This document shows, piece after piece, positions 4,217-31,733 of a DNA stretch of 32,000 nucleotides (the first letter of the stretch is position 1; every line of letters begins with the position of its first letter). The notes beneath the pieces were generated by a model. The model was not told where the DNA came from. It searched no databases and saw nothing but the letters and a program-made list of their open reading frames with translations. The DNA lies in the NCBI GenBank assembly GCA_021825365.1, contig JAKAHR010000002.1, forward strand, positions 121,639 to 153,638, read 5' to 3'. The stretch comes from Nitrospirota bacterium. GTDB lineage: Bacteria > Nitrospirota > Thermodesulfovibrionia > Thermodesulfovibrionales > UBA6898. Made by a program: the position numbers and the translations under genes.

Positions 4217-4693
4217 ATGATGATTCATATCGAAGTCAACGGAAAGAGACATGATCTCGATGTCAGCCCTGATATGCCGCTCCTCTGGGTGATCAGGGAT
4301 TATCTGAAACTCTCCGGCACCAAGTTCGGCTGCGGCATGGCACAGTGCGGGGCCTGTACGGTCCATGTCGACGGCGAGCCGACCCGCTCGTGTGTTACGC
4401 CGGTGTCGTCCGTTTCCGGCAAGAAGATAACAACGATCGAAGGCCTCGATGCGTCAGGGGCCGGACGCGCCGTGCAGGAGGCCTGGACAGCGGAGGATGT
4501 GCCCCAATGCGGCTATTGCCAGTCAGGACAGGTCATGCAGGCCGCAGCCCTTCTGGCTCAGAATCCACAGCCGACGGATGCTGATATCGACGCATCCCTG
4601 TCGGGAAACCTCTGCCGCTGCGGGACGTATCAGCGCATTCGAAAGGCGGTCCATCGCGCAGCCGGGATGATGGCGAAAGGGGGTAAGCGATGA
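4217..4693 (+). CDS. (2Fe-2S)-binding small subunit of a molybdenum hydroxylase (IorA/aldehyde oxidoreductase small-subunit type)
   Basis: Start chosen at ATG 4217, preceded by AAGGAGG (4208-4214). [10 protein letters not shown]..., [11 protein letters not shown] and CGYCQSG...CRCGTY are the two 2Fe-2S cluster motifs. An ATGA overlap links it to the next gene. Confidence 0.85.
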
Positions 4694-6849
4694 AGGGGAT
4701 TATAAACATAAGCCGCCGTGATTTTCTCAAGACCGGCGCAGCGATCAGCGGGGGACTGATCCTCGGCCTTCACCTGAATCTGCCGGAATCCCTCGCTGCC
4801 GGGCAGCAGGCAGCCGCTCTTGTTCCAAACGCCTTTGTCCGCATCGGCACTGACGACATGGTGACGATTATCGTAAATCATTCCGAGATGGGGCAGGGAG
4901 TCTACACGTCGCTCCCCATGCTCGTTGCCGAGGAACTCGAGGCTGACTGGAAGAAGATAAGGGTCGAGGCCGCCCCTGTTGATCCTGTATACAACCACAC
5001 CGCCTTTGGCATGCAGATGACCGGCGGCAGCACGAGTGTCTGGAGCGAGTACGATCGGTTGCGCAAGGTCGGCGCAGCCGCCCGCGAGATGCTGATCGCA
5101 GCTGCAGCAGAGACATGGAAGGTGAACCGGAAAGGCTGCAGGGCTGAAAAAGGGGTCGTCATTCATAAGAGCGGCAAGAGGCTTCGGTACGGCCAACTCG
5201 CAGAAAAGGCAGCGGCGATGCCGGTCCCGTCAGATATTAAACTCAAGGACCCGCAGAAATACAGGATCGTCGGCAGGCCGACCCTCCGAATCGATTCCCG
5301 CGAAAAGGTGAACGGGAAGGCGATCTTCGGGCTGGACGCATCAGTCTCCGGAATGCTGACTGCGGTCGTTGCGCATCCTCCGGTATTCGGCGGGAAGGTC
5401 AAAAGCCTTCATGCTGAAAAGGCGAGGGCAGTCGCCGGGGTCAAGGATATTGTCCAGGTGCCCTCAGGCGTTGCGGTACTCGCAACAGGCTTCTGGCCTG
5501 CGCTGACTGGTCGTGATGCCCTCGAGATCGTCTGGGATGAAGGTCCGAATGCGAAGCTGTCAACCTCCGGTTTGCGCGAGCAATACGCAGCCCTGGCCAT
5601 GACACCGGGCGCGGTCGCCAGAAAGGAGGGCTCCGTTGATACGGCCCTTGCAAAGGCGGCGAAACGACTCCGTGTTGAGTACGAAGTCCCCTACCTTGCG
5701 CATGCGACCATGGAGCCCCTGAACTGCACCGTTGACCTGAGGCCTGACTCCTGCGAAATCTGGGTTGGAACGCAGTTTCAGACCGTTGACCGCAATGCAG
5801 CCGCGGCGATCTCGGGACTCAAACCTGAGCAGGTCAGGATACACACCCTGTTCCTGGGCGGGGGGTTCGGCAGGCGCGCCAATCCTGCCTCTGATTTTGT
5901 AAGCGAGGCGGTGCACGTCGCCAAGGCGGCGAAGGCCCCGGTGAAGGTGATCTGGACGCGGGAGAATGATATGAGAGGAGGCTACTACAGGCCTCTATGG
6001 TACGACCGCATCGAGGCCGGCCTGGATGAGAAGGGCGGACCCGTTGTCTGGAAACACACCATTGTCGGTCAGTCGATCGTCGCCGGAACGCCGTTTGAAA
6101 AGGCCCTTGCGAAAAACGGCATTGACAACACATCCGTAGAGGGCGCGGCCGACCTGCCGTATGCGATACCGAATATCCTTGTGGACCTGCATAGTCCTTC
6201 TGTCGGCGTCCCGGTATTATGGTGGCGGTCTGTCGGCCACTCGCATACGGCGTTTGTCGTCGAGAGCCTTATCGACGAGCTCGCCCACGAGGCCAAAAAG
6301 GACCCGTACGAGTTTCGCCGTGGCCTCCTGGCCAAACATTCTCGCCATCTCGGCGTGCTAAAGCTCGCAGCCGGGAAGGCGGGCTGGGGTACCCCGATGC
6401 CTGAGGGACGGGCCAGGGGCATCGCGGTGCATGAGTCCTTCGGCAGCTACGTCGCGGAGGTTGCCGAGGTATCGGTCAGCCCTGCAGGGGAGGTGCGAGT
6501 CCACAGGGTTGTGTGCGCCGTTGACTGCGGAGAGTTTGTCAACCCTGCTACGATAAGGGCGCAGATGGAATCCGCTGTCTCCTTCGGCCTTTCCGCTGTG
6601 CTGCACAGTGAGATCACCCTCGAAGGCGGACGGGTACGGCAGAGCAACTTTCATGACTATAAAGTTCTTCGGCTAAACGAGATGCCGGAGGTGGAAGTCC
6701 ACATCGTGCATAACAGTGAGAAACCGGGTGGCATCGGCGAGCCGGGCGTGCCGCCCATCGCTCCGGCTGTCTGCAATGCGATCTTCCTGCTGACCGGCAA
6801 ACGGGTCCGCAGGCTGCCTGTCAGGCCTGAAGACCTGAGGCATGCATAA
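4690..6849 (+). CDS. Molybdopterin-binding large subunit of an IorB/xanthine-dehydrogenase-family oxidoreductase, Tat signal
   Basis: 719 aa. The twin-arginine motif [15 protein letters not shown] sits at the N-terminus. Further motifs are [10 protein letters not shown] and GGGFGRR, typical of the aldehyde oxidase/XDH Mo-binding domain. There is no separate FAD subunit (two-subunit IorAB architecture). Confidence 0.85.
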
Positions 6850-19901: not shown

Positions 19902-19982
19902 AAAATCGGCAGCAACATGCTGGTTTTCTTATTATTTCGAAATATCAGACAGAAGAAATAACACTCAGCAGGCCATACGGGG

Positions 19983-20528
19983 CTAGAGCTCTGACACCTC
20001 GCGAAGCACCTGAGGGTTTCGCGTGAGGACCCGCCTGCACGCCTTACAAAACTCCTTTGACTTGTGGTCCGTGTCGCTGAGGTTGTATGAGAAGAACATG
20101 ACACACTGCCGCTGGCTGCAGTGCGAGAGCCCAAGAAGGTGTCCGACCTCATGGACCGCAGTCTTGACAGCCCTTCCGATAACCCCTCTGCCGGCCGGCT
20201 TTCTCTCATCACCCTGGCCGAAGCGGGCTATGGAGATAATGGCAGCCGGATATTCACGATCAGCAAGACCGAATACATAATTCAGTCCTGGATACGAGAG
20301 ATCGACATCTGTAATCGCAACTGTCAGCCCCGGCCCTTTCGCCAACGAGCGGAGACATTTCAGCAGATGCGCCGCAAAGTATTGCCTGCCCGGAGACTCT
20401 TTCGCGAATCCCTCAATAGAGGCGGTCGGCGCCACGGTAACAGGGAAACCCAAGAGCGAACCCGTCTCCTCCGCAACCGTTGAAACAATATCGATATCGA
20501 TGTTCCCAAGAGGCACTACCCGTATCAT
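19983..20528 (-). CDS. amzA: Archaemetzincin-like zinc metallopeptidase (peptidase M54)
   Basis: HEVGHLLGLSHCSQRQCVM....CKAC fits the archaemetzincin signature HExxHxxGxxxCxxxxCxM...CxxC. Start set at ATG 20528 (MIRVVPLGN, GGAG just upstream) rather than track position 20627. Confidence 0.75.
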   Translation of the reverse strand: MIRVVPLGNIDIDIVSTVAEETGSLLGFPVTVAPTASIEGFAKESPGRQYFAAHLLKCLRSLAKGPGLTVAITDVDLSYPGLNYVFGLADREYPAAIISIARFGQGDERKPAGRGVIGRAVKTAVHEVGHLLGLSHCSQRQCVMFFSYNLSDTDHKSKEFCKACRRVLTRNPQVLREVSEL

Positions 20529-20644
20529 CGTCTCCGGGACGTCTCGCCTCATCATCGCCGTACCTGTGCTCACGAAATATGGAGAGGCAAATCCCGTGCC
20601 TGCCAAAAGGGGCCTTCCTCCCCCCATAGCCGCCTGACGTTATT

Positions 20645-20671
20645 TCATATTGAAATGCCATTTCAATATGA
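20645..20671. promoter_or_regulatory. 27-bp perfect palindrome, candidate operator for the NtrC-type regulator
   Basis: TCATATTGAAATG-C-CATTTCAATATGA has 13-bp arms. The half-site CATTTCAAWATGA is the same as in the inverted repeat at 24784-24820. It lies in the intergenic region about 100 nt upstream of yeeE. Confidence 0.55.
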
Positions 20672-20750
20672 GAGAATTCATAAGCATATCCACCGGGGAA
20701 ATTCACTCGAAACAAAACGCCGGAGTTGGCTTTATCGCCTTCTAAAACCG

Positions 20751-20756
20751 TATAAT
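20751..20756 (+). promoter_or_regulatory. Possible -10 element (TATAAT) of the yeeE-tusA-kinase-regulator operon
   Basis: A perfect TATAAT ends 16 nt before the yeeE ATG. The only -35-like hexamer (TTGGCT, 20726-20731) sits at a suboptimal 19-nt spacing. Confidence 0.3.
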
Positions 20757-20772: not shown

Positions 20773-21897
20773 ATGTATCCGGAGATTGTTCTTACCCATC
20801 TTCTGTTTGGCATCGGACTCGGCGTTGTCATGCATCGGTCGGATTTCTGCATGGCCGGGGCATTCCGCGATATCTTCATCACCCGCGATTTTTTCCGGAT
20901 GAGGGCTGTCATCCTCCTGGTTTCCGTGACCTCCGTACTGCTATACCTGGCCCGCACTGCCGGCCTCGTGGACTCTTACCCGCCATCCTTCTATTCCTCC
21001 CCCTCGCTCGCCCATCTTGCGGGAGGCGTCATCTTCGGCATCGGCATGGTCCTTGCTGGCGGTTGTGTTATGGGAACCCTCTATAAAGCGGGAGCTGGAA
21101 ACCTTGTCAGTCTGTGCGCCTTTTCAGGACTCCTTCTCGGCAGCCTGCTCTTCGCCTGGGCATATCCGCTGCACCGCTCCTTTGTCGAGGCGACTACCCT
21201 GCCCGGCGGATTTACCGCCATGGAACACCTGACCGGAGCCCCGGGGCTGTCCGCATTACTTATCGTCTCGATATCCATCCTGTACCTCTTCAGGGGAAAA
21301 GAGCGTCCTGCCTGGACGAGTAATGCCTTTGCCAGGGGTTATCTCGACCCCTGGAAGGCGGCGCTTATCGTCTGCGCGATCATCATCCTATCCTTTACCC
21401 TGACCGGCCGCCCTCTCGCGCTTACGTCAGGGTACTCAAGACTTGCCTCGTGTCTTGCAGAAAGGTTGCTGCCCGAAGCCGTCACCCTTCCCTCCGCCAG
21501 AAGCGACTCTGTTCGTCTCCTCTATGGGATGGCCATGGACCCGGAGAGCCTGTCAGGGACTGACCCTGTGGTGCTCACGCAGGTACCCCTGATCTTCGGA
21601 ATTGTCATCGGCGCCTTTCTTTCCGCCCTGAGGCTGGGGGAGATCACCGCCCGCCCGGCGCCTCCCCGAAGGCAGCTCCTTTCCGGTTTCGCTGGCGGCA
21701 TCCTCCTCGCATGCGGTTCTCTGATGGCAGGCGGCTGCAATGTCTGGCATATCATGGGAGGACTGCCGCTTTTCGTATTTCAGAGCGTCCTCTTCGTCTG
21801 CGGCATGGGGTTCGGCGCATATGTCGGAAGCCGCCTGCTGCTCACAACGGTCCTTCAAGTTGAGAGGTGTGCCCCACATGGAAACCATAGCTATTGA
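20773..21897 (+). CDS. yeeE: YeeE/YedE-family sulfur-compound transporter
   Basis: 374 aa, polytopic. The Cys-containing motifs of the sulphur-transport domain are HRSDFCMAGAFRDIF, GMVLAGGCVMGTLYKAG and GSLMAGGCNVWHIMGG. Confidence 0.85.
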   Translation: MYPEIVLTHLLFGIGLGVVMHRSDFCMAGAFRDIFITRDFFRMRAVILLVSVTSVLLYLARTAGLVDSYPPSFYSSPSLAHLAGGVIFGIGMVLAGGCVMGTLYKAGAGNLVSLCAFSGLLLGSLLFAWAYPLHRSFVEATTLPGGFTAMEHLTGAPGLSALLIVSISILYLFRGKERPAWTSNAFARGYLDPWKAALIVCAIIILSFTLTGRPLALTSGYSRLASCLAERLLPEAVTLPSARSDSVRLLYGMAMDPESLSGTDPVVLTQVPLIFGIVIGAFLSALRLGEITARPAPPRRQLLSGFAGGILLACGSLMAGGCNVWHIMGGLPLFVFQSVLFVCGMGFGAYVGSRLLLTTVLQVERCAPHGNHSY

Positions 21898-22117
21898 TAT
21901 CAGGGGGCAGATCTGCCCCGCCTGTCTGCTGATTACTCTACGGGAAATCAACACCCACAAGACGGTCCTGAGGGACGGCAAGGCGCGCCTCGTCATAAAA
22001 ACCGATCACCGCGACGCCACAAGGACAATACCCTCCACGGTCTGCGCCATGGGGTACGATATCAATGTTACAGGCCGGAAGGGTTACTACGAGATCACGA
22101 TCGGGTACCGGAAATGA
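21878..22117 (+). CDS. tusA: TusA/SirA-family sulfur carrier (variant CPAC motif)
   Basis: 79 aa from ATG 21878 (METIAIDIRGQICPACLL...). This is the D.RG..CP motif of the TusA fold. It overlaps the yeeE end by 20 nt and the kinase start by ATGA. Confidence 0.75.
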   Translation: METIAIDIRGQICPACLLITLREINTHKTVLRDGKARLVIKTDHRDATRTIPSTVCAMGYDINVTGRKGYYEITIGYRK

Positions 22118-23403
22118 GAAAGATCGCTCCCCTCCGTATCAACAATATCGATGAACTCCAGAAGAGCAATGAGACGCTGAAGCGTTACATCCGGGAAAAG
22201 GTGAACCAGTTGCTCTCGATGATGGGCACGAGGCCGCTTGATCCCGCCGAGCTTGACGACAGTACGCTGCTTGACATCGATCCGATCGGCATCATAGCCG
22301 ACGCCTTCGGCCAGGTCCTCGAACACCTCGAGGAGACTAACAGGAAATTGATCAACACCAAGGATCAGTTGCAGGCCGTCTTCGAGACCGCAGGGGTCTG
22401 CATCTCGATCGTCGACCCTGACCTCAGGATCATCAGCTGCAATGAGAAGCAGCGGGAATTGCTCGTCTCCGATCTCAACGAGAAGGAATTTGTCGGCCGC
22501 TATTGCTACGAGGTCTATTGCGGTAACGATTCTCCGGCCCTCTACTGTCCGGCGATCGAGACGATCGAGACAGGGAAACCGGTCTTCATCAGGGAAATCA
22601 AGAAGAAAGGCAGGTATTTCCAGATCGTCACCTCCCCCCTGAAAAACCGCGACGGCACCCTCAAAGGCGTCGTCGAGGTCTCGATCGACGTGACGGAAAA
22701 GAAGAGGGCTGAAGAGGGCATGCGGCAGGCCGAAAAATTGTCAGCCATCGGCCTGCTCGGAGCCGGCGTTGCCCATGAGATCAATACACCCCTTGGTAAT
22801 ATCCTCGGCTATGCCAAAATGCTGCTAAAGGAGCAGGACCTCAGCGACCACCATAAGGAAAAATTGCAGGTCATCGTCGAACAGGCGAAAAAGGGCAGCG
22901 AGATCATCAGGGGACTTCTCAATTTTTCCCGTCAGTCAAAGCCTTCCCTTGCCACCATTTCGATGAACGATATGGTCAACAAAGTGCTCCTGGAGCTTTC
23001 GACCCAAATCGAGCGACAGGGGATAACCACCAGAAAAAACCTCCGGCCGATACCCCTCGTCGAGGCTGACCCCCTGCAGATAGAGCAGGTGCTCAGCAAT
23101 CTGGTGCTGAATGCGCTCCACGCCCTTGCCCGGACCCCGGAGGGGACCATCATCGTTGAGACACAGCGTACCGGCGCCTTTGTGGAGACGCGGATTGTCG
23201 ATAACGGCCCCGGCATATCCGACACCCTGCTCCCCCTGATATTCGATCCCTTCTTCACGACCAAGCCCGTGGGCGAAGGAGTCGGCCTCGGCCTTTCCAT
23301 CTGCTCGGGAATCATCAGGGACCATGGCGGCACCATACAGGCGGAGTCCGACCCCCGGGGAAAGACGGTCTTTTCTTTCCTCCTGCCCGTCAGATCCCCA
23401 TGA
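22114..23403 (+). CDS. Soluble PAS-domain sensor histidine kinase (NtrB/AtoS type)
   Basis: 429 aa with no hydrophobic TM segment. Coiled N-terminus and a PAS-like region carrying five Cys (including RYCYEVYCGNDSPALYCP). H box AHEINTPLGNILGY; ATPase G boxes DNGPGI and GVGLGLSI. Confidence 0.9.
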   Translation: MRKIAPLRINNIDELQKSNETLKRYIREKVNQLLSMMGTRPLDPAELDDSTLLDIDPIGIIADAFGQVLEHLEETNRKLINTKDQLQAVFETAGVCISIVDPDLRIISCNEKQRELLVSDLNEKEFVGRYCYEVYCGNDSPALYCPAIETIETGKPVFIREIKKKGRYFQIVTSPLKNRDGTLKGVVEVSIDVTEKKRAEEGMRQAEKLSAIGLLGAGVAHEINTPLGNILGYAKMLLKEQDLSDHHKEKLQVIVEQAKKGSEIIRGLLNFSRQSKPSLATISMNDMVNKVLLELSTQIERQGITTRKNLRPIPLVEADPLQIEQVLSNLVLNALHALARTPEGTIIVETQRTGAFVETRIVDNGPGISDTLLPLIFDPFFTTKPVGEGVGLGLSICSGIIRDHGGTIQAESDPRGKTVFSFLLPVRSP

Positions 23404-24779
23404 CAAAAATTGATCTTTCTCCTGAGGCGACTCCGCTGGCCCATCTGCTTATCGTCGAAGACGACTACCGCATGAGACTTCTCATGAAGCAGCTTCTCGA
23501 AAAAGAGGGGTATGCCACAACGGTCACGGAAGACGGCCGGGATGCCGTATCCCTGATCAAGGAGCGCTTCTTTGATATCGTCCTCACTGACCTCAAGATG
23601 CCCCATCTTGACGGCATGGAGGTACTCAGCGTCTCCCGGGAAGTCAATCCGGACACCCCCGTAATCGTCACGACCGGATATGCAACCGTGGACTCGGCGG
23701 TTGAGGCGATGAAGAAGGGCGCCTATGATTACGTGCAGAAGCCGTTCGATCCCGACGAACTCCTCCTCGTCGTGAAGCGCGCCCTCGACTACCGAAGGCT
23801 GATCGACGAGAATATCCGGCTGTCGGTAGCCCTTGAGAGTTGCTCTGGAGAAGAATTCGTGGGAATGAGCAACGGGGCTGTCAAGACGCGAAAATTCGCG
23901 GAGAGAGTCGCGCCGTTTGATTCAACGGTATTGATCCAGGGCGAGACCGGCTCGGGCAAGGAACTTGTCGCACGGCTGATCCATCGGCTCAGCAGAAGGG
24001 CGTCTCATAAATTTCTCGCGGTAAACTGTGCCGCCCTGACAGAATCCCTCCTGGAGGCTGAACTCTTTGGCTATGAGAAGGGCGCCTTTACCGGTGCGAC
24101 CCAGATGAAACGGGGGCTTTTTGAGGCCTCGGACGGCGGCACGCTGTTCCTCGACGAGATCAACAACTCCTCGGCATCGATGCAGATGAAACTCCTCCGA
24201 GTACTGCAGGACGGCCGGATCATCCGGGTGGGAGGGGTCGAACCGATAGACATCAATGTCCGTGTCATCGCAGCCTCGAATGCTGACCTGAAGTCCGAGA
24301 GCGAAGAAGGACGATTCAGGAAGGACCTCTTCTACCGCATCAATGTGGTCATGATCGATATCCCCCCCCTGAGAGGCCGCCGCGACGATATCCCTCTCCT
24401 GGCGACTCATTTCCTGGACAAGTACTCCCGCAAGTTCGCGAAGGAAATTAAGGGCTTCAGTCCGGAGGTGATGAAGATCCTCGCTGACTATCCCTGGCCC
24501 GGCAATGTCCGCGAACTCGAGAATGCGATCGAGCACGCGGTCATCATGGCGAAATCGCAAAAAAGCATATCAGCCGAATCTCTCCCTGAAGAGGTCAGAA
24601 AGAAGAAGCAGGGTGCTCTACCCCCTCCTTTCGCGGCCGTTCGTCTCGATGAGGTCGAAAAATCACTCATAGAGCAGGCGATGCTCACCTTCAACGGCCA
24701 GAAGGCGAAGGCTGCAGAGGCCCTCGGCATCAGCTCTTCGACCCTCTGGAGGAAACTGAAAAAATACCGGCTTGAATGA
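23400..24779 (+). CDS. Sigma-54-dependent response regulator (NtrC family bEBP)
   Basis: 459 aa. Receiver domain (LLIVEDD...VLTDLKMP). AAA+ domain with GETGSGKE, the GAFTGA sigma-54 contact loop and DEIN Walker B. C-terminal Fis-type HTH (AAEALGISSSTLWRKLKKY). Confidence 0.95.
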   Translation: MTKIDLSPEATPLAHLLIVEDDYRMRLLMKQLLEKEGYATTVTEDGRDAVSLIKERFFDIVLTDLKMPHLDGMEVLSVSREVNPDTPVIVTTGYATVDSAVEAMKKGAYDYVQKPFDPDELLLVVKRALDYRRLIDENIRLSVALESCSGEEFVGMSNGAVKTRKFAERVAPFDSTVLIQGETGSGKELVARLIHRLSRRASHKFLAVNCAALTESLLEAELFGYEKGAFTGATQMKRGLFEASDGGTLFLDEINNSSASMQMKLLRVLQDGRIIRVGGVEPIDINVRVIAASNADLKSESEEGRFRKDLFYRINVVMIDIPPLRGRRDDIPLLATHFLDKYSRKFAKEIKGFSPEVMKILADYPWPGNVRELENAIEHAVIMAKSQKSISAESLPEEVRKKKQGALPPPFAAVRLDEVEKSLIEQAMLTFNGQKAKAAEALGISSSTLWRKLKKYRLE

Positions 24780-24783
24780 TCGT

Positions 24784-24820
24784 GCATTTCAAAATGACAA
24801 ACCAACTCATTTTGAAATGC
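24784..24820. promoter_or_regulatory. Upstream activator sequence candidate: 14-bp perfect inverted repeat
   Basis: GCATTTCAAAATGA-N9-TCATTTTGAAATGC starts 5 nt after the regulator stop. It lies about 165-200 nt upstream of the sigma-54 promoter, the usual bEBP enhancer distance. It is AT-rich and has no trailing T-tract, so it is unlikely to be a terminator. Confidence 0.6.
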
Positions 24821-24984
24821 GCAACCGCCGGTGCTGACTCCGGACTGACCGCGCAACACTTCACCGCCTCAACAACCCCGAAAACCAGTCTCCGCGCCAT
24901 TCCATAAGCCATTACGCTGATTTCCCAGGCAGCCGCCTCTGTAGTTATGTGCGCATTCCATCCCGCCGCGACCATTGCGCTCAC

Positions 24985-25000
24985 TGGCACCCATCTTGCT
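24985..25000 (+). promoter_or_regulatory. Sigma-54 (-24/-12) promoter
   Basis: TGGCAC-CCATC-TTGCT is an exact match to TGGCAC-N5-TTGCW. It lies 75 nt upstream of the first ATG of the downstream operon and directly downstream of a sigma-54 activator gene. Confidence 0.85.
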
Positions 25001-25074
25001 CAATTACGAAAAGAACCATGCCCATCGCCTCCCTCAGGCGGCGATGGGCGAACTACCAAAGAAAGGAGAAGACA

Positions 25075-25254
25075 ATGTCGATAGAAGGAAAAGGCGGACT
25101 TACCTTGCCCTGGCTCTGGGTGGCTGTCGTGATCGCCTATCTCGCCTTTGGCTTCATGCTGCCCCCCTTCGATAGCCACCTGAAGGAGCTGGCAAAGGCC
25201 AAAGCTGCACCCGCGGCCGATCAGAGCGGGAAGGGCGACGAAATTGTCTTTTGA
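25075..25254 (+). CDS. Small single-pass membrane protein (59 aa), unknown family
   Basis: ATG 25075 is preceded by AAAGGAG (25061-25067). MSIEGKGGLTLPWLWVAVVIAYLAFGFMLPPF is one TM helix, followed by a charged and Ala-rich tail. First gene after the sigma-54 promoter. Confidence 0.6.
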   Translation: MSIEGKGGLTLPWLWVAVVIAYLAFGFMLPPFDSHLKELAKAKAAPAADQSGKGDEIVF

Positions 25255-25258
25255 CCGC

Positions 25259-25780
25259 ATGGTCGAGCCCCCCGCAAGAAGGCCCAGCCCCAGGGAAAAA
25301 CATCACGGGACTGCCCGGGTTTCCCCGGCGATACACCTTGTGCTCGCAGCTTTCCTCATCTTCCTGTGTGAAGGAAACCCCTGCGGAGAGGCGTCGGAAA
25401 AGAAAGGGAGCATATCCCCCGGGGGCGAGGTGCGGGAAATCCGGTGGACCCCCACGAGCGAGGGATTATCGGTAGAACGCATTGTAGCGCGGAAGAAGGT
25501 GGTGGTCCCTATCGAGGTCTCGCTCAACGGAAACATCGCAGAAGTAATCTTTATCATTCCTTCAAAATTCAAGGCCTTCGGCATCTCCATGGAACCACAG
25601 GTGGCCGAAGTGAAGAACGGCAAGGCACAAGCAGGGGTTGCGTTTTATATCCTGGAGGGGATGCCGCTCGGCAGGCACAATCTCATCATCGAAATCCTCG
25701 ATGGCCTGACCCGGACCAGGATAGGAAGCGCCACCATCCCCTTTATCCTCCTGCCGTCTGATCTCGAATGTCTTTGCTGA
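25259..25780 (+). CDS. Secreted protein of unknown family, paralogue A, ends in ..LLPSDLECLC
   Basis: ATG 25259 lies 4 nt after the previous stop (the track uses TTG 25244). Basic N-region, then a hydrophobic helix AIHLVLAAFLIFL (signal or anchor). The C-terminal 67 aa align without gaps to the next gene product (23 identities counted by eye). Confidence 0.7.
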   Translation: MVEPPARRPSPREKHHGTARVSPAIHLVLAAFLIFLCEGNPCGEASEKKGSISPGGEVREIRWTPTSEGLSVERIVARKKVVVPIEVSLNGNIAEVIFIIPSKFKAFGISMEPQVAEVKNGKAQAGVAFYILEGMPLGRHNLIIEILDGLTRTRIGSATIPFILLPSDLECLC

Positions 25781-25824
25781 TTGGATCTGCTCTATAAAAA
25801 GGAGAAAGGAAGGTATATACAACC

Positions 25825-26304
25825 GTGAAGAAAATAGGAACTCTTATGGGAGCCGCTATCCTGGCTTCCTTTCTGCTCGCCGGCGTACCATTGATTACTA
25901 CTCATAACAGCAGCGACGGTGCGGTGAAGACCGCCGAGGCGGCTGAGGCACCCTCCACAGACTTCGCGTGGCACCCCAACAGACCGGGGATCAAGCGGGC
26001 GCAGATAGCCCTCGGCAGGGCCTCTACACTTCGCTTCGAGTTCTCCCTCAAGGGAAAAAACGGCACACAGGTGAAATTCGGCTTGCCGAAAAAATATGTG
26101 ACCATGGGCATCAGGATCGACCCCCATGAAGTCCCGGTCAGCGAGGGAAAGGCATCGTCCAAGGCGGTGCTCACCGTGCCACCCGGAATGCCCCTCGGAA
26201 AGTTCGATATCCCCGTGATCGCGGTAGACGCGAAAACAGGAACAGAGCTCGGCAGGGGCGAGATCCCGATCATGCTGCTGCCTGCCGGAGTGGGCGGGTG
26301 TTAA
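25825..26304 (+). CDS. Secreted protein of unknown family, paralogue B, ends in ..LLPAGVGGC (SoxY-like C-terminal Cys tail)
   Basis: GTG 25825 follows an AAAAGGAGAAAGGAAGG SD region. Sec-type signal MKKIGTLMGAAILASFLLAGVPL. It shares the motifs LPKKY, GI.I.P, GKA, GMPLG and IP.(I/M)LLP with paralogue A. Confidence 0.75.
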   Translation: MKKIGTLMGAAILASFLLAGVPLITTHNSSDGAVKTAEAAEAPSTDFAWHPNRPGIKRAQIALGRASTLRFEFSLKGKNGTQVKFGLPKKYVTMGIRIDPHEVPVSEGKASSKAVLTVPPGMPLGKFDIPVIAVDAKTGTELGRGEIPIMLLPAGVGGC

Positions 26305-26331
26305 CCGTGCAATCCAAGGAGGAAGAGCCGT

Positions 26332-27732
26332 ATGGATGACTACGGAGTGCGAGGCTGGTGGGATGCGTGGTACAGGAAATTCTTCAAAGAAAAATGGCCG
26401 CTCTCAATGGCGGCGGTATTCATGGCACTTTCCGGGATAATTGCCTACGGCGTCGCGGTATGGTCCCTGGCCAGGACGGTGGCGGGAAGTAACCCGTACG
26501 ATCAGGCCAAACCGCTCGGCACCTTCCTCGGATTGAAGGAACTCGGCGGTATCATCAACGGCCTTCTGGGCAAGATCGGGCTCCCTCATTACCCCTTTGC
26601 CGGATATACGTGGCCTGATGGCGTGACGATCAACTTCTTCCAGCAATATCCAAATCCCTTGCTCGAACCGACGGCCGGCACGATGCTCGGCATACTCTTC
26701 GGAGGCCTTATCGCCGCCCTCCTGGCGAAGGAGTTCGCCCTGAAGGTACCCTTCGACAGGACCGAGTACAGCCTGGCGGTCGTCGGAGGCATCCTGATGG
26801 GGGTAGGCGCGGTCTTTCAGTTCGGCTGCCCCGTGGTGAGCACCACCAACCTGGGGGCCATGGGCGTACAGGCGATCATCATGGTCATCGGCATGACGAT
26901 CGGCTCCTATTTCGGAGCAAAAATCATCGTCTGGCTCGAAAAAAGAAGGGTTGCGGCGATCGCCTGCGCAGCGGACGGGGCCGGCTACCGGCCGCTGATG
27001 CTTTTTGAAAAGACAAAGACAGTCTGGCCCCGCCTGCCTGACCGGGCCGACGGCGGCGAACCGGCCGGCCTCAGGTATCAGCCGTATCTGGCCGCCTTGC
27101 TTCTGGGGGCGATGGTGCTCATCCTCCTCCGTTTTGCGGGCCTGGGCTACCCTGCTCTTTCGCTCTCCTTTGCCGCAGCCACCCTCACCGGCTTTGCGAT
27201 GCAAAGGGGAGGGATCTGTTTCGCCTACGCATACCGCGAACCGTTTCTCTCGGGATTTTCAGATATGTCGCGGGCGATGGCATTGCTCTACATCCTGCTG
27301 GTGCTCGGCTTCCTGCCGATGAAGCTGCTGGCGACTGCGAATCCTGATCTTGCGTATGCGGAGATTTTCGCGATTAGCCCCGCCGGCATCGGCGTCCTGC
27401 TCGGTTCAATTCTCTTCGGCATCGGCATGGCGCTCAACGGAGCGTGTGTCAGTGACAGCCTCTGGAGGACTGCAGAAGGACAGGTAAAGATCTGGGTGGG
27501 GCTGCTCACCCTCATCTGCGTGTCGTCCTGGATCTTTCCGATGCGCGAGGAGGCATGGTTCAAGAGTATCTTCGCGCCCTATGGCTCGCAGAACATCCGC
27601 GACGTATACCTGCCGGAGATCCTGGGCGGATATCCTGCAGCAGTCGCCTTTGTCATCGGCGTGGTAATTTGCTGGGCCCTGCTGATGACATGGTTCAGCG
27701 GCAGGACTTTCAGAAAATACATGGAGGAATAG
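26332..27732 (+). CDS. Divergent, enlarged YeeE/YedE-like membrane protein
   Basis: 466 aa, polytopic. YeeE-type Cys motifs are recognisable but diverged: GVGAVFQFGCPVVSTTNLG, QRGGICFAYAYREPF, GIGMALNGACVSDSLWRTAEG. It has an extra N-terminal segment and a long hydrophilic loop between the two halves. Confidence 0.7.
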   Translation: MDDYGVRGWWDAWYRKFFKEKWPLSMAAVFMALSGIIAYGVAVWSLARTVAGSNPYDQAKPLGTFLGLKELGGIINGLLGKIGLPHYPFAGYTWPDGVTINFFQQYPNPLLEPTAGTMLGILFGGLIAALLAKEFALKVPFDRTEYSLAVVGGILMGVGAVFQFGCPVVSTTNLGAMGVQAIIMVIGMTIGSYFGAKIIVWLEKRRVAAIACAADGAGYRPLMLFEKTKTVWPRLPDRADGGEPAGLRYQPYLAALLLGAMVLILLRFAGLGYPALSLSFAAATLTGFAMQRGGICFAYAYREPFLSGFSDMSRAMALLYILLVLGFLPMKLLATANPDLAYAEIFAISPAGIGVLLGSILFGIGMALNGACVSDSLWRTAEGQVKIWVGLLTLICVSSWIFPMREEAWFKSIFAPYGSQNIRDVYLPEILGGYPAAVAFVIGVVICWALLMTWFSGRTFRKYMEE

Positions 27733-27816
27733 ACGGGACGCGGGCTGTTCAATCCGATGTCCCCTCACCGTAACGACCGCCGGGTTCCCGGGTCCGGCTA
27801 AACGAAAGGAGGAATA

Positions 27817-28053
27817 ATGGCAACGGAAAGCCATATCGACAGGGAGCTGGATGTGAAGGGGCTCGTCTGTCCAAGGCCAATGGTGATGAGCATGAGTGCG
27901 CTGAAAGCGATGTCACCGGGGCAGGTGTTGAAGATCACGGCGAATGACAGCAGCACGAAACATTCCATTCCGGCCTTGTGCGAACGGGCAGGGTACAAAC
28001 TCGTCGAGCAGACGGAGGAGATGGGAGCTTTCATCTTCATCATCCAGAAATAA
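27817..28053 (+). CDS. tusA: TusA/SirA-family sulfur carrier (canonical CPxP motif)
   Basis: 78 aa. LDVKGLVCPRPMVMSMSALK is the TusA active-site motif. SD AAAGGAGG upstream (27803-27810). Confidence 0.85.
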   Translation: MATESHIDRELDVKGLVCPRPMVMSMSALKAMSPGQVLKITANDSSTKHSIPALCERAGYKLVEQTEEMGAFIFIIQK

Positions 28054-28106
28054 CCCGAAAGCCTGCGGACTGCAGGCCACATTTCACAGACAGGCGGAGG
28101 TAATAT

Positions 28107-29411
28107 ATGCGAAAGAGGCTATTGGAAACAAATAGGGCAAGCCTGGTACTGCTGGCGATCGCCCTGTCACTGATCTCTTTTTCCCTGATTCTCCACGGAT
28201 GTGGAGGAGGCGGCTACGATGCCCCTGCCACAACCCAGACCGTGTCGGCCCTGGTCTCGCCCGAGACCCTCAAGGGCTGGATCGACAACGGGAGCGTAAA
28301 CGGCACGGGATACGACAAGGTCGTCATCCTCGACGTCAATTCCCAGGCAAACTACTCAGCCGGGCATATACCCGGCGCCCAGTTTCTCGATAGCGCGGAC
28401 ATTTATCAGACGAGAAACGAAGGCATCGCCGCTGACGTCAACATGGTCCTTGACGGCAGTCACATGGACGCATTGATCCACAAATACGGCATAGATCGCA
28501 ATACAACGATCGTTTTTACAAGCGGCAACAATGATCCCAAGACAACGCCGTCGTCCATGCTCTCTGCCACCAGGGCCTATTGGACCTTCCGGTACTGGGG
28601 CTTTCCCAAGGAGAGACTCAAGGTAGCCGACGGCATCAACCCCGCATGGTCCGCCGTGTTCGGACTGACTACCGCCCCCTCGCCGGCGATCATCCCCTCC
28701 ACGTACAGCGTAAAGAGCAACGGGCTTCTGCGGAGCGAAGTAAGGGCATCTCTGGCCGAGATGATCAGCCTCGTTGACAGCGGAACTCCCAACGCGCTGA
28801 TCATAGACGGCAGGGGATCAGGCGGCTCGTTTGCAGGCACCCCAGGGTCGACCGCAGGCGTCTTCCCCCCGACCGGAGATTTTGTCGCCTTTGAAGGAAG
28901 GATCAAAGGGGCAAAGGCATTGGGATATACAACGCTCTTTGATTCCGGCAACGGCAACCGCTTCCTCCCGCCGGACCAGCTCGCCGCGAAATTTGCCGCG
29001 ATCGGGCTCGACAGCTCCAAGACCGCCTATGTCCACTGCCGCACCGGCGTCATCGCCTCTGCCCTGTATTTTGCACTCGATGGAATCCTCAACTGGCCAG
29101 CGTCCAACTATGATGCATCCTGGAGCCAGTGGGGGCAGCTTGCAGGAGACCCAACTGACGGCAAACAGATTGACCCGAATTCCCCCTGGAGAACCGACAT
29201 CCCCTCCCGGTCGGAGCTCGTCGTCTACAATGGGGCAAACGGCAAGACCGTCGAGAAGCTCTGTCTGGACGGTTCCGCCGCCACCTGCGCCACGCCGGCG
29301 TCGTTCGATACGGATGCGAACAAGATCGAGGAAGAAGACGCCGCGTATATGAACAGCGGCGGCTCAGCCGGCGGTTCCGGAGGCGGAGGAGGAGGCAAGA
29401 CAGGATGCTAG
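28107..29411 (+). CDS. Tandem-rhodanese (thiosulfate/polysulfide sulfurtransferase-like) lipoprotein with Gly-rich C-terminal tail ending in Cys
   Basis: 434 aa. Signal peptide with lipobox LHG-C (Cys32). The first rhodanese domain lacks the catalytic Cys (VFTSGNND). The second has the active-site loop YVHCRTGVIAS (Cys311, nt 29037-29039). The tail is SGGSAGGSGGGGGGKTGC-stop. Confidence 0.8.
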   Translation: MRKRLLETNRASLVLLAIALSLISFSLILHGCGGGGYDAPATTQTVSALVSPETLKGWIDNGSVNGTGYDKVVILDVNSQANYSAGHIPGAQFLDSADIYQTRNEGIAADVNMVLDGSHMDALIHKYGIDRNTTIVFTSGNNDPKTTPSSMLSATRAYWTFRYWGFPKERLKVADGINPAWSAVFGLTTAPSPAIIPSTYSVKSNGLLRSEVRASLAEMISLVDSGTPNALIIDGRGSGGSFAGTPGSTAGVFPPTGDFVAFEGRIKGAKALGYTTLFDSGNGNRFLPPDQLAAKFAAIGLDSSKTAYVHCRTGVIASALYFALDGILNWPASNYDASWSQWGQLAGDPTDGKQIDPNSPWRTDIPSRSELVVYNGANGKTVEKLCLDGSAATCATPASFDTDANKIEEEDAAYMNSGGSAGGSGGGGGGKTGC

Positions 29412-29467
29412 GGAGCAATGATGCGGAAAGAGCAGAGAACCATTCCATCGTCAAGGAGGAGAATAGC

Positions 29468-30664
29468 ATGATGAGAATTCTAAAATGGGCGTTGCTCCTG
29501 ATGCTTCCGGTTGCCGTCTTCTGCATGGGAGAGCGGGACGCCCTCGCCTTTCAGCCTATCGTGTTTGGTGAAGAAGGGGCCTTTTTGAAAATCGATTATC
29601 AGGGCCAGCTTTACGGCGTGGTGCGTGACACAGGGTCCGGTCCGGACAAGACAGCGGATACGACTGACCTGTTCTTCAGAAGGAACCGTCTGACCTTCTG
29701 GGGACACGGCACCGACAAATACGGGTTTATCGTCCAGCTTGAATATACCGGGGAGAGGAGAGTCGACTCGCTCATCGTCAACGATCAGCCCGGCAAGGAC
29801 TTCAACGTCCTTGACGCCTATTTCATGGCGGACTTTTCGAACAGTTTCCGGGTCTATGCGGGAAAGCAGAAGATACAGCTGACGAGGGAAAACCTCGAAG
29901 ATTGTTTCGAGCCCCTCAGCGTCGACCGTTCCCTCTTCATCTATACGCCGTTCAAGCACAGCAGGGACACCGGACTGGTCGTCTGGGGAAACATCCCCGA
30001 GTTGCTGATGCAATACCGGCTGGCGGTCTCGAAAGGGAAAGATAATGGCGATGAGCCCAAGAGCTCCCTCATGTACACCGGCCGCGTACACGTCTCCCTC
30101 CTGGATCCGGAATACGCATACGGGTACAAGGGGACATATCTCGGGACCAAAAAGACGCTGACCGTGGGCGCAGGCGTTCAGTACGAGCCGGACGCGGTAT
30201 TCAGCGATATCGTCAACAAGACCGGGGGCAAGAACTACTCCGCCTGGACCGTTGATGCCTTTTTCGAATATCCGTTCAAGAATGCCGGTGCCATCACCCT
30301 GTCGGGGGCTTATCTGCAAACGAAATTCGACGAGGCCTTCAAGGGGAACAACCCTGATCCGGAGAGTCTCGGCATCGACGGAGACAAGAAAGGCTGGTAT
30401 CTGAAGGCAGGCTACCTCCTGCCCATGAAGATCGGGTGGGGGCAGGTCCAGCCCTTTGTCCGTTACGAGGACTGGAGTTTCGCCCAGCTGAACAATGTCT
30501 TTGACCAGAAGGTGAAGTGGTTCGGGGCAGGGCTCAACTATCTGATCAACGGACAGAGCCTCAGGATTACCCTCGAATACGCGAAGACGAATTTCGACAA
30601 GGAGCCGAATCCGCAGTCAAAGGATTTCAGCACGGTCACCGCGATGCTGCAGTATCGGTTCTGA
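29468..30664 (+). CDS. Outer-membrane beta-barrel porin, OprO/OprP-like (anion-selective porin family)
   Basis: Start at ATG 29468 (AAGGAGGAG SD). Signal MMRILKWALLLMLPVAVFC..ALA-F. FFRRNRLTFWG motif as in phosphate-selective porins. Alternating beta-strand pattern, with C-terminal ..MLQYRF (terminal Phe). Confidence 0.7.
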   Translation: MMRILKWALLLMLPVAVFCMGERDALAFQPIVFGEEGAFLKIDYQGQLYGVVRDTGSGPDKTADTTDLFFRRNRLTFWGHGTDKYGFIVQLEYTGERRVDSLIVNDQPGKDFNVLDAYFMADFSNSFRVYAGKQKIQLTRENLEDCFEPLSVDRSLFIYTPFKHSRDTGLVVWGNIPELLMQYRLAVSKGKDNGDEPKSSLMYTGRVHVSLLDPEYAYGYKGTYLGTKKTLTVGAGVQYEPDAVFSDIVNKTGGKNYSAWTVDAFFEYPFKNAGAITLSGAYLQTKFDEAFKGNNPDPESLGIDGDKKGWYLKAGYLLPMKIGWGQVQPFVRYEDWSFAQLNNVFDQKVKWFGAGLNYLINGQSLRITLEYAKTNFDKEPNPQSKDFSTVTAMLQYRF

Positions 30665-30695: not shown

Positions 30696-30741
30696 GGTCA
30701 TATGGAGGTAATCATCACCTCCATATGACCCTCTTTTTTTG
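30696..30741 (+). terminator. Rho-independent terminator of the sigma-54 operon
   Basis: GGTCATATGGAGGT-AATCATC-ACCTCCATATGACC is a perfect 14-bp stem followed by CTCTTTTTTTG. It starts 32 nt after the porin stop. Confidence 0.9.
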
Positions 30742-30876: not shown

Positions 30877-31266
30877 ATGGGAAACCATAGAGATGAAAGG
30901 GACAAGTCGTTTTATCCGGATTATCTGAGTGAAATCCTTGCAGCGATATTTCTAACGATCTTCACCGTTTTTATCCTCGCCATGGTATATGCGCCATCCA
31001 TTGACAGAGAGATCAACTATGTGTCTGCCTACCACCCGAAACCGGAATGGTACTTTCTCTGGATCTATCAGCTCATCAGGTATTTCCCGGGGGGTTGGGC
31101 CTTCGTCGGGACCGTGCTGATTCCGATTGTTGCAGCAGCTCTTTTCATCGGCATACCCTTTGTCGACCGCGGGACCGTGCGTTCCGGAAGGGCCGCCTCC
31201 TTTTTGTTTGCCCTGCTCTCCGTGTTCTTTCTCGTCCTGACCGTGGTGCCGCTTCTGTGGCCCTGA
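30877..31266 (+). CDS. Cytochrome b C-terminal-domain protein (b6f subunit IV / PetD-like)
   Basis: 129 aa with three TM helices and the KPEWYFLWIYQLIRYFPG motif (the PEWYFL signature of the cytochrome b C-terminal domain). Confidence 0.75.
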   Translation: MGNHRDERDKSFYPDYLSEILAAIFLTIFTVFILAMVYAPSIDREINYVSAYHPKPEWYFLWIYQLIRYFPGGWAFVGTVLIPIVAAALFIGIPFVDRGTVRSGRAASFLFALLSVFFLVLTVVPLLWP

Positions 31267-31283
31267 CAGACGACGTCTTTCCC

Positions 31284-31733
31284 ATGGACAGCAGAAGAGA
31301 TTTCCTGAGGCGTTTCGTGAAATCCGGCTTCGGACTGCTCGCCTTCCTCTTCGGAGCGACATTGCTCAGATTCCTCTATCCGTCACAGGTCCGTACGCGT
31401 CAGCTGCTCTACCATCCCCTGCTCAAGGAAGATGATATCCCGAGGCAGGGTGTCAGAAGGGTCCACCTGACATACGACAAAGGGGAGAAGACAATCACGA
31501 TGCGCCTTTTTCTCGTACATGCAGGGGCCGACATATTCGCGCTTTCCTCCTCCTGCACGCACCTCGGATGTCTGGTGGACTGGTCCCGCCACAAGGAACA
31601 GTTCGTCTGCCCCTGCCATGGCGGGAAATATGATATGCAGGGCAACGTCATGGCCGGTCCGCCTCCTCTCGCCCTTGCGCGGATGCCGTTGAAGATCGAA
31701 AACGGGGTAGTCTACATAGGGATTAAGGAGTAG
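31284..31733 (+). CDS. Rieske [2Fe-2S] subunit with Tat signal
   Basis: Start at ATG 31284 (MDSRRDFLRRFVKSGFGLLAF; the track ORF begins upstream at 31047). Cluster boxes CTHLGC and CPCHGG. Confidence 0.9.
   Translation: MDSRRDFLRRFVKSGFGLLAFLFGATLLRFLYPSQVRTRQLLYHPLLKEDDIPRQGVRRVHLTYDKGEKTITMRLFLVHAGADIFALSSSCTHLGCLVDWSRHKEQFVCPCHGGKYDMQGNVMAGPPPLALARMPLKIENGVVYIGIKE

Follow-up and report, generated by a model that had tools for sequence, protein, structure and literature searches.

Two abutting 15-bp dyads, located between the gene for an NtrC-type response regulator and a seven-gene sulfur operon, probably constitute the upstream activating sequence through which a dedicated two-component system switches on transcription by sigma-54 RNA polymerase. 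They were found in the window, which is the whole stretch of 32,000 nucleotides analyzed here and originates from a Nitrospirota bacterium (contig JAKAHR010000002.1, positions 121,639 to 153,638). At positions 24784–24820 of the window lies a perfect 14-bp inverted repeat, whose arms, GCATTTCAAAATGA (24784–24797) and TCATTTTGAAATGC (24807–24820), are 100% complementary and separated by a spacer of 9 nt. The repeat starts 5 nt past the stop codon of the regulator gene. Downstream of it, TGGCACCCATCTTGCT at 24985–25000 on the + strand is the sole exact match to TGGCAC-N5-TTGCT in the window. A preliminary description of this DNA, made from the letters alone, had claimed such a repeat and such a promoter at a distance of about 165–200 nt. 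The repeat is exactly as described there, the promoter is present, and the distance to the promoter is 165 nt from the end of the repeat and 201 nt from its start.

The repeat and the promoter are confirmed as real features that exceed chance expectation by far. Only 1 of 300 Markov-1 simulated windows contained a perfect 14-bp inverted repeat whose spacer was 60 nt or shorter, while the real window has two, the other being the terminator of the sulfur operon. Exact matches to TGGCAC-N5-TTGCW are expected 0.02 times per window. The predicted sigma-54 promoter (−24 element TGGCAC, −12 element TTGCT) shows the exact GG/GC spacing, is on the same strand as the gene that follows and ends 75 nt before the ATG of this gene at position 25075, which is within the distance of ~100 nt from a start codon that was allowed for such promoters. 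The transcription start predicted from it is at ~25010–25012. No match to the IHF consensus WATCAA-N4-TTR was found within one mismatch in the 165-bp spacer between the repeat and the promoter (24821–24984). An IHF site between enhancer and promoter is common but not obligatory.

The recurrent unit of the putative enhancer is a 15-bp dyad, ATTTCA-N3-TGAAAT, which carries ~17 bits and whose CA and TG were invariant among the 18 sites first collected. Two dyads always abut, with their centers 18 bp apart, or 17 bp apart in the two most distant loci (L002 and L085). In the window, D1 (ATTTCAAAATGACAA, 24786–24800, 19.9 bits with the PWM) has a strong left half-site and D2 (AACTCATTTTGAAAT, 24804–24818, 17.4 bits) has a strong right half-site. 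Because of this mirror arrangement, the two dyads together form the perfect 14-bp inverted repeat. The position of D1 and the 18-bp spacing between the centers of D1 and D2 are conserved among the orthologous loci. The units of L002 and L085 are arranged as direct rather than inverted repeats. At the second site of both the window and L083, each unit is a near-complete palindrome. Two other definitions of the unit were rejected. A single long repeat with 14-bp arms, which the preliminary description had taken as the unit, fits some of the loci only, whereas two 15-bp dyads 17–18 bp apart fit all 14 pairs. Likewise, a 12-bp palindrome, CATTT-N2-AAATG, does not agree with the conserved positions, which are ATTTCA...TG(A) with invariant CA/TG. 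In addition, a perfect 12-bp palindrome, TATTTCGAAATA, is found at positions 19933–19944 of the window, in the short gap that separates an archaemetzincin gene from a PilZ-domain gene. Its half-sites are similar to those of the dyads but are spaced differently.

Relative to the predicted transcription start, the dyads of the window are centered at about −218 and −200, and those of the orthologous loci range from −79/−96 to −314/−332. No helical phasing of the dyads relative to the −24 element was found across the orthologs. The center-to-center distance of 18 bp puts the two dimers on different faces of the DNA. This distance is unlike that of glnAp2, where the spacing between sites is three helical turns.

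Orthologous loci were identified with the regulator protein as query and, at a later stage, with CysB, one of the exported proteins encoded by the sulfur operon. Eleven independent loci with the same gene order were obtained: L081 (identical to L082 in this region), L083, L084, L001, L002, L085, and L162 to L166. The identities between their regulators and that of the window ranged from 54 to 80%, and the closest relatives of the window were Candidatus Sulfobium and Thermodesulfovibrionales MAGs. Similar to the window, all 11 loci possess the dyad pair between the regulator gene and the next gene. A GG-N10-GC promoter on the same strand and downstream of the dyads was also found in the window and in 10 of the 11 loci, where 8 to 11 of the 11 consensus positions matched and GG and GC were always kept. 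The exception is L163, in which no convincing promoter follows the first dyad pair. The dyad pair is 5–36 nt past the regulator stop codon in most orthologs, 339 nt past it in L162 and 159 nt past it in L166. The distance between dyads and promoter varied from 54 to 289 bp across the loci and the sequence in between was diverged; distances in this range are permitted for an enhancer that is reached via DNA looping. When the three closest intergenic regions were aligned, only the dyads, the −24/−12 elements and the RBS were conserved.

The dyad pair is also specific to the loci with orthologous regulators. Around 153 paralogous regulators (1.37 Mb in total), no pair of dyads 15–22 bp apart was found, despite 177 single PWM hits (0.13 per kb of this control DNA), and a search of the paralog loci with a simpler regular expression likewise revealed no pair. 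Phylogenetic footprinting therefore strengthens the connection between the enhancer-promoter module and the regulator that the preliminary description had drawn. Two parts of that description are revised: the unit is a pair of dyads instead of one long repeat, and the predicted regulon is larger than the seven genes to which it had been confined.

The regulator gene (23400–24779, + strand) is the last gene of a predicted sensor operon on the + strand. The first gene of this operon, YeeE1 (20773–21897), encodes a YeeE/YedE-type sulfur transporter (Pfam Sulf_transp, E 1.5e-47) and is syntenic in all orthologous loci that extend that far. It is followed by the gene for a TusA-like sulfurtransferase (Pfam TusA), TusA1 (21878–22117), and by the gene for a soluble PAS histidine kinase (22114–23403), in which PAS_9/PAS_4, HisKA and HATPase_c domains were identified. 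The YeeE and TusA genes always precede the kinase gene. The PAS region of the kinase (about residues 105–150) contains four cysteines in the arrangement C-N-E-K-Q ... Y-C-Y-E-V-Y-C-G-x-x-S-P-x-L-x-C-P, which are invariant in all orthologs down to 58% identity. These cysteines could be ligands of an Fe-S cluster or serve to sense persulfide.

The domains that had been read from the translation of the regulator gene, which were a receiver, an AAA+ domain with GAFTGA and a Fis-type HTH, were all recovered by Pfam. The regulator possesses Response_reg (E 7.6e-31, residues 17–125), Sigma54_activat (E 1.3e-65), AAA_lid_14 and the C-terminal HTH_8 (E 4e-15, residues 416–456), and its translation contains EKGAFTGATQ. 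No named ortholog group was found for it among the NCBIfam equivalogs, as every score, including those for AtoC (447 vs. a cutoff of 714), NtrC (414 vs. 559), ZraR (401 vs. 760), NtrX, GlrR and others, was under the respective cutoff. Its best relatives of solved structure were the NtrC-family chains 4l4u and 1ny5 of Aquifex, followed by ZraR. The HTH of the regulator and its orthologs carries the signature GQKAK...GIS-x-x-[TS]LWRK(L/I)KK and lacks the Arg with which the recognition helix of most paralogs begins.

A sigma-70-type promoter, TTGGCT-N19-TATAAT, is predicted upstream of YeeE1 (20726–20756, + strand). Similar elements, TTGACx-N17-19-TATAaT, precede YeeE1 in L083, L001, L084, L162, L164, L165, and L166, and no dyads were found upstream of YeeE1 in L001, L084, L162, L165, and L166. 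Given this type of promoter and the lack of dyads in these five loci, the sensor genes appear to be expressed independently of sigma-54. As an exception, L164 has a second dyad pair, at 2036–2068, on the upstream side of the sigma-70-type promoter that precedes its sensor operon. An archaemetzincin gene is missing from this locus, no −24/−12 element was found near the pair, and the only open reading frame there is a doubtful one of 44 amino acid residues on the minus strand. The second pair of L164 may mean that the sensor operon is autoregulated. In L165, a consensus sigma-54 promoter, TGGCACATAATTTGCA, is found on the minus strand at 1254–1239, where it is directed away from YeeE1 and toward three small genes on the same strand as the promoter. 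There is no dyad pair in its vicinity.

In the window, a second dyad pair is located at 20642–20674, between YeeE1 and a divergent gene for an archaemetzincin (peptidase M54). It consists of ATTTCATATTGAAAT (20642–20656, 25.9 bits) and ATTTCAATATGAGAG (20660–20674, 19.6 bits), whose centers are also 18 bp apart. L083 has the same arrangement at 1265–1297. The archaemetzincin gene is on the minus strand at 19983–20528, its start being taken at an ATG preceded by GGAG, and its product scored 146.5 bits with NCBIfam archmetzin, for which the cutoff is 145. Its weaker, sigma-54-like promoter, AGGCACGGGATTTGCC (20586–20601, minus strand), matches 9 of the 11 consensus positions with GG and GC kept, and the dyads are at about −73 and −91 relative to its predicted start. 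The counterpart in L083, CGGCATGCGGCGTGCT, is a weaker match. The divergent archaemetzincin genes of the window and L083 have their own dyad pair and their own GG-N10-GC promoter, and these minus-strand promoters are regarded as probable. L001, L084, L162, L163, L165, and L166 instead have the archaemetzincin gene as the nearest gene downstream of the dyads and promoter that follow the regulator gene. Given that it directly follows the regulator's promoter in these six loci, the archaemetzincin gene is most likely a member of the regulon. L163 has two identical copies of the dyad pair, one ahead of the archaemetzincin gene (4635–4667) and one ahead of the gene for the small membrane protein (5768–5800), and the two pairs are separated by the archaemetzincin gene and a non-coding stretch of ~940 bp.

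Seven co-directional genes on the + strand, at 25075–30664, follow the sigma-54 promoter, and they are closed by a canonical intrinsic terminator at 30696–30740 (a 14-bp G+C-containing stem, which is the second perfect 14-bp repeat of the window, a 7-nt loop and a run of seven T). A seven-gene operon had also been proposed at the outset, and this proposal holds. The first gene (25075–25254), which is preceded by the RBS AAAGGAGA and is called as a gene on the source contig, encodes a membrane protein of 59 amino acid residues that is 52–76% identical in the orthologs. It is followed by the gene for CysA (25259–25780), an exported protein of unknown family that ends in cysteine and for which no Pfam or NCBIfam hit was obtained, and by that for its paralog CysB (25825–26304), an exported protein with an Ig-like beta-sandwich. 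The remaining genes encode YeeE2 (26332–27732), a second YeeE/YedE-type transporter (Pfam Sulf_transp); TusA2 (27817–28053), a second TusA (Pfam TusA, E 3e-21); a lipoprotein with a rhodanese domain (28107–29411; Pfam Rhodanese) and a Gly-rich tail that ends in cysteine; and, in the last position, an outer-membrane protein of the Porin O/P family (29405–30664; Pfam Porin_O_P). Past the operon, at 30877–31733 of the window, are open reading frames for a cytochrome b C-terminal domain and a Rieske domain. In L163, Rieske and cytochrome b genes are likewise located past the porin gene, there on the opposite strand.

CysB, CysA and the rhodanese lipoprotein, all three of them exported products of the operon, each have a flexible tail with cysteine as its last residue. 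CysB ends with LLPAGVGGC, which was invariant across 38 homologs; all of them were annotated as hypothetical, and all were from Nitrospirota or Thermodesulfovibrionales MAGs. CysA ends with LECLC and the rhodanese lipoprotein with GGSGGGGGGKTGC. The predicted fold of CysB is an Ig-like beta-sandwich (pLDDT 82). The tails with terminal cysteine recall the carrier arm of SoxY. The identification of CysB as a SoxY was not supported, however, as Foldseek yielded generic Ig/PapD-like folds only.

The predicted 5′ leader of the operon contains a stable hairpin at 25020–25049 (+ strand), which is 10–40 nt past the predicted start and has a G+C-rich stem of 10–13 bp (−25.5 kcal/mol, z −5.1). The leader of L083 contains an equally strong but unrelated hairpin (z −4.2), and those of L081, L001, and L165 lack one of this strength, so that a conserved leader hairpin was rejected as part of the module. 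No Rfam family was found in the leader or in the repeat; the sole Rfam match in the window was a tRNA gene at 2043–2115.

From this arrangement, the following mechanism is proposed. The sensor operon, YeeE1-TusA1-PAS kinase-regulator, would be transcribed from its sigma-70-type promoter. In response to a signal, which we infer to be a sulfur compound, the kinase would phosphorylate the NtrC-family regulator. Dimers of the regulator would then bind to the two abutting 15-bp dyads (24786–24818) and assemble into the active AAA+ oligomer, which DNA looping would bring to the sigma-54 RNA polymerase held in the closed complex at 24985–25000. Hydrolysis of ATP would open the promoter, and transcription would proceed from near position 25011 through the seven genes to the terminator at 30696–30740. 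The dyad pair at 20642–20674 would act likewise on the weaker sigma-54-like promoter of the archaemetzincin gene. Against this mechanism are the lack of an IHF consensus in the spacer, the lack of helical phasing, the position of the two dimers on different faces of the DNA, the pair of L164 without a sigma-54 promoter and the unconvincing promoter of L163.

Three other explanations for the repeat, or for the repeat together with the promoter, were considered. The two could be chance features of the intergenic region, in favor of which 0.66 matches to the promoter consensus are expected per window when one mismatch is permitted, and single PWM hits occur at the density given above for control DNA. 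Against chance are the low number of exact promoter matches expected, the rarity of a perfect repeat in simulated windows, and the recurrence of both features in the same order in the orthologous loci with a dyad spacing that is fixed at 17–18 bp. The comparative data effectively refute this explanation, whose probability we regard as negligible. A role of the repeat as an RNA hairpin, by which the transcript of the sensor operon would be terminated or stabilized, is also highly improbable. The repeat does begin directly behind the regulator stop codon in the window and closely behind it in most orthologs, its RNA is predicted to fold (−21.1 kcal/mol, z −4.3), and no other terminator was found between the regulator gene and the sigma-54 promoter. 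However, its stem is A+U-rich and followed by GCGCAACCGCC instead of a U-tract, and a scan for terminators did not report it, whereas the downstream operon ends in a canonical terminator with a G+C stem and a run of seven T. Moreover, the substitutions among the orthologs are not compensatory (covariation of 0.071 vs. 0.090 in shuffles), the direct repeats of L002 and L085 form no hairpin, the pairs of L162 and L166 are far past the stop codon, and the pair is also found in a divergent intergenic region where no transcript ends. Given the lack of a U-tract and of covariation, and given that other copies are not hairpins, the repeat was rejected as a terminator.

The dyads could also be the sites of a different factor, be it an enhancer-binding protein other than the adjacent regulator, a repressor or a nucleoid protein with specificity for A+T-rich dyads; the adjacent regulator would then act elsewhere or on another sequence. 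The gene order is conserved, and the mere proximity of the dyads to the regulator gene is therefore no proof of which protein binds to them. In addition, the motif is A+T-rich in a genome of ~56% G+C, and the additional pair of L164 lies upstream of a sigma-70-type promoter without a −24/−12 element. Nevertheless, the regulator gene is the only transcription-factor gene that is conserved in the cluster, and the pair was confined to loci with orthologs of the regulator, being absent around all 153 paralogs. Where the archaemetzincin gene is relocated, moreover, it is accompanied by the pair and by a sigma-54-like promoter of its own. The intergenic region also contains no other conserved block that could serve as the enhancer that a sigma-54 promoter needs. 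A different factor is considered unlikely.

YeeE1, TusA1, the PAS kinase with its four cysteines and the regulator might constitute a transport-coupled sulfur sensor that switches on a sulfur relay from the outer membrane to the cytoplasm, although we consider this rather doubtful. In such a sensor, YeeE1 would import the sulfur, TusA1 would carry it as a persulfide, and the soluble PAS kinase would detect it with its invariant cysteines. The relay would comprise the porin, the rhodanese lipoprotein, the two Ig-like carriers with C-terminal cysteine arms, YeeE2 and TusA2, plus the archaemetzincin. If this were true, a complete and undescribed sulfur relay would be under the control of the regulator's abutting dyads. 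The sensor/relay system appears to be specific to Thermodesulfovibrionales-like Nitrospirota.

The mechanism itself, in which an NtrC-type activator acts from an enhancer on a sigma-54 promoter, is textbook knowledge and would not surprise a specialist. The value of the analysis is that it predicts a precise binding motif with its architecture, as well as a regulon of two promoters, for an uncharacterized regulator, which is conserved in uncultured Sulfobium-like and Thermodesulfovibrionales bacteria that are implicated in sulfate reduction and sulfur disproportionation. Unannotated genes, which are those for the exported proteins with terminal cysteine, the 59-residue membrane protein and the archaemetzincin, are tied by it into one putatively co-regulated unit of sulfur acquisition. 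With short DNA probes and point mutations, the regulator and the inducing sulfur compound become testable in a heterologous host, without culturing the organism. No description of the regulator, the motif or the regulation of the cluster was found in the literature.

Among known systems, NtrC (NR-I)/glnAp2, DctD, ZraR, AtoC and NtrC1/NtrC4 of Aquifex have the same order of REC, AAA+ domain with GAFTGA and Fis-type HTH as the regulator of this study. Similar to NtrC systems, the kinase gene adjoins the regulator gene, and two dyad-symmetric sites are located upstream of a −24/−12 promoter at a variable distance that fits looping. Different from NtrC systems, the kinase is a soluble PAS protein with four cysteines, and the predicted targets are sulfur-trafficking genes. 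NtrC sites, moreover, are TGCACC-N5-GGTGCA and ~32 bp apart, whereas the motif found here is ATTTCA-N3-TGAAAT and its dyads abut at 18 bp. The genes are also comparable to the YTD (YedE-TusA-DsrE) clusters, which were proposed as markers of sulfur disproportionation and which bring together YedE/YeeE and TusA genes in Nitrospirota and Desulfobacterota (PMC12998232). That study mentions no regulator, two-component system or sigma factor (PMC12998232). Similar to YTD clusters, YedE/YeeE and TusA genes are clustered in the window. Different from them, no DsrE-like gene was seen here, and the Ig-like proteins with terminal cysteine, the rhodanese lipoprotein and the porin are outside the definition of YTD.

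In terms of function, the closest analogue is TspS/TspR of Acidithiobacillus caldus, a two-component system that depends on sigma-54 and is encoded directly upstream of the sox cluster, which it activates via an upstream activating sequence (PMC6335251). The site of TspR is TGTCCCAAATGGGACA, its targets are Sox proteins, and periplasmic thiosulfate is the proposed signal (PMC6335251). Similar to TspS/TspR, the two-component system of the window is encoded directly upstream of an operon for sulfur metabolism, and its dependence on sigma-54 is predicted. Different from TspS/TspR, however, the kinase is without a membrane segment, the motif is not TGTCCCAAATGGGACA, the phylum is Nitrospirota, and the predicted targets are YeeE, TusA, rhodanese, porin and Cys-terminated proteins instead of sox.
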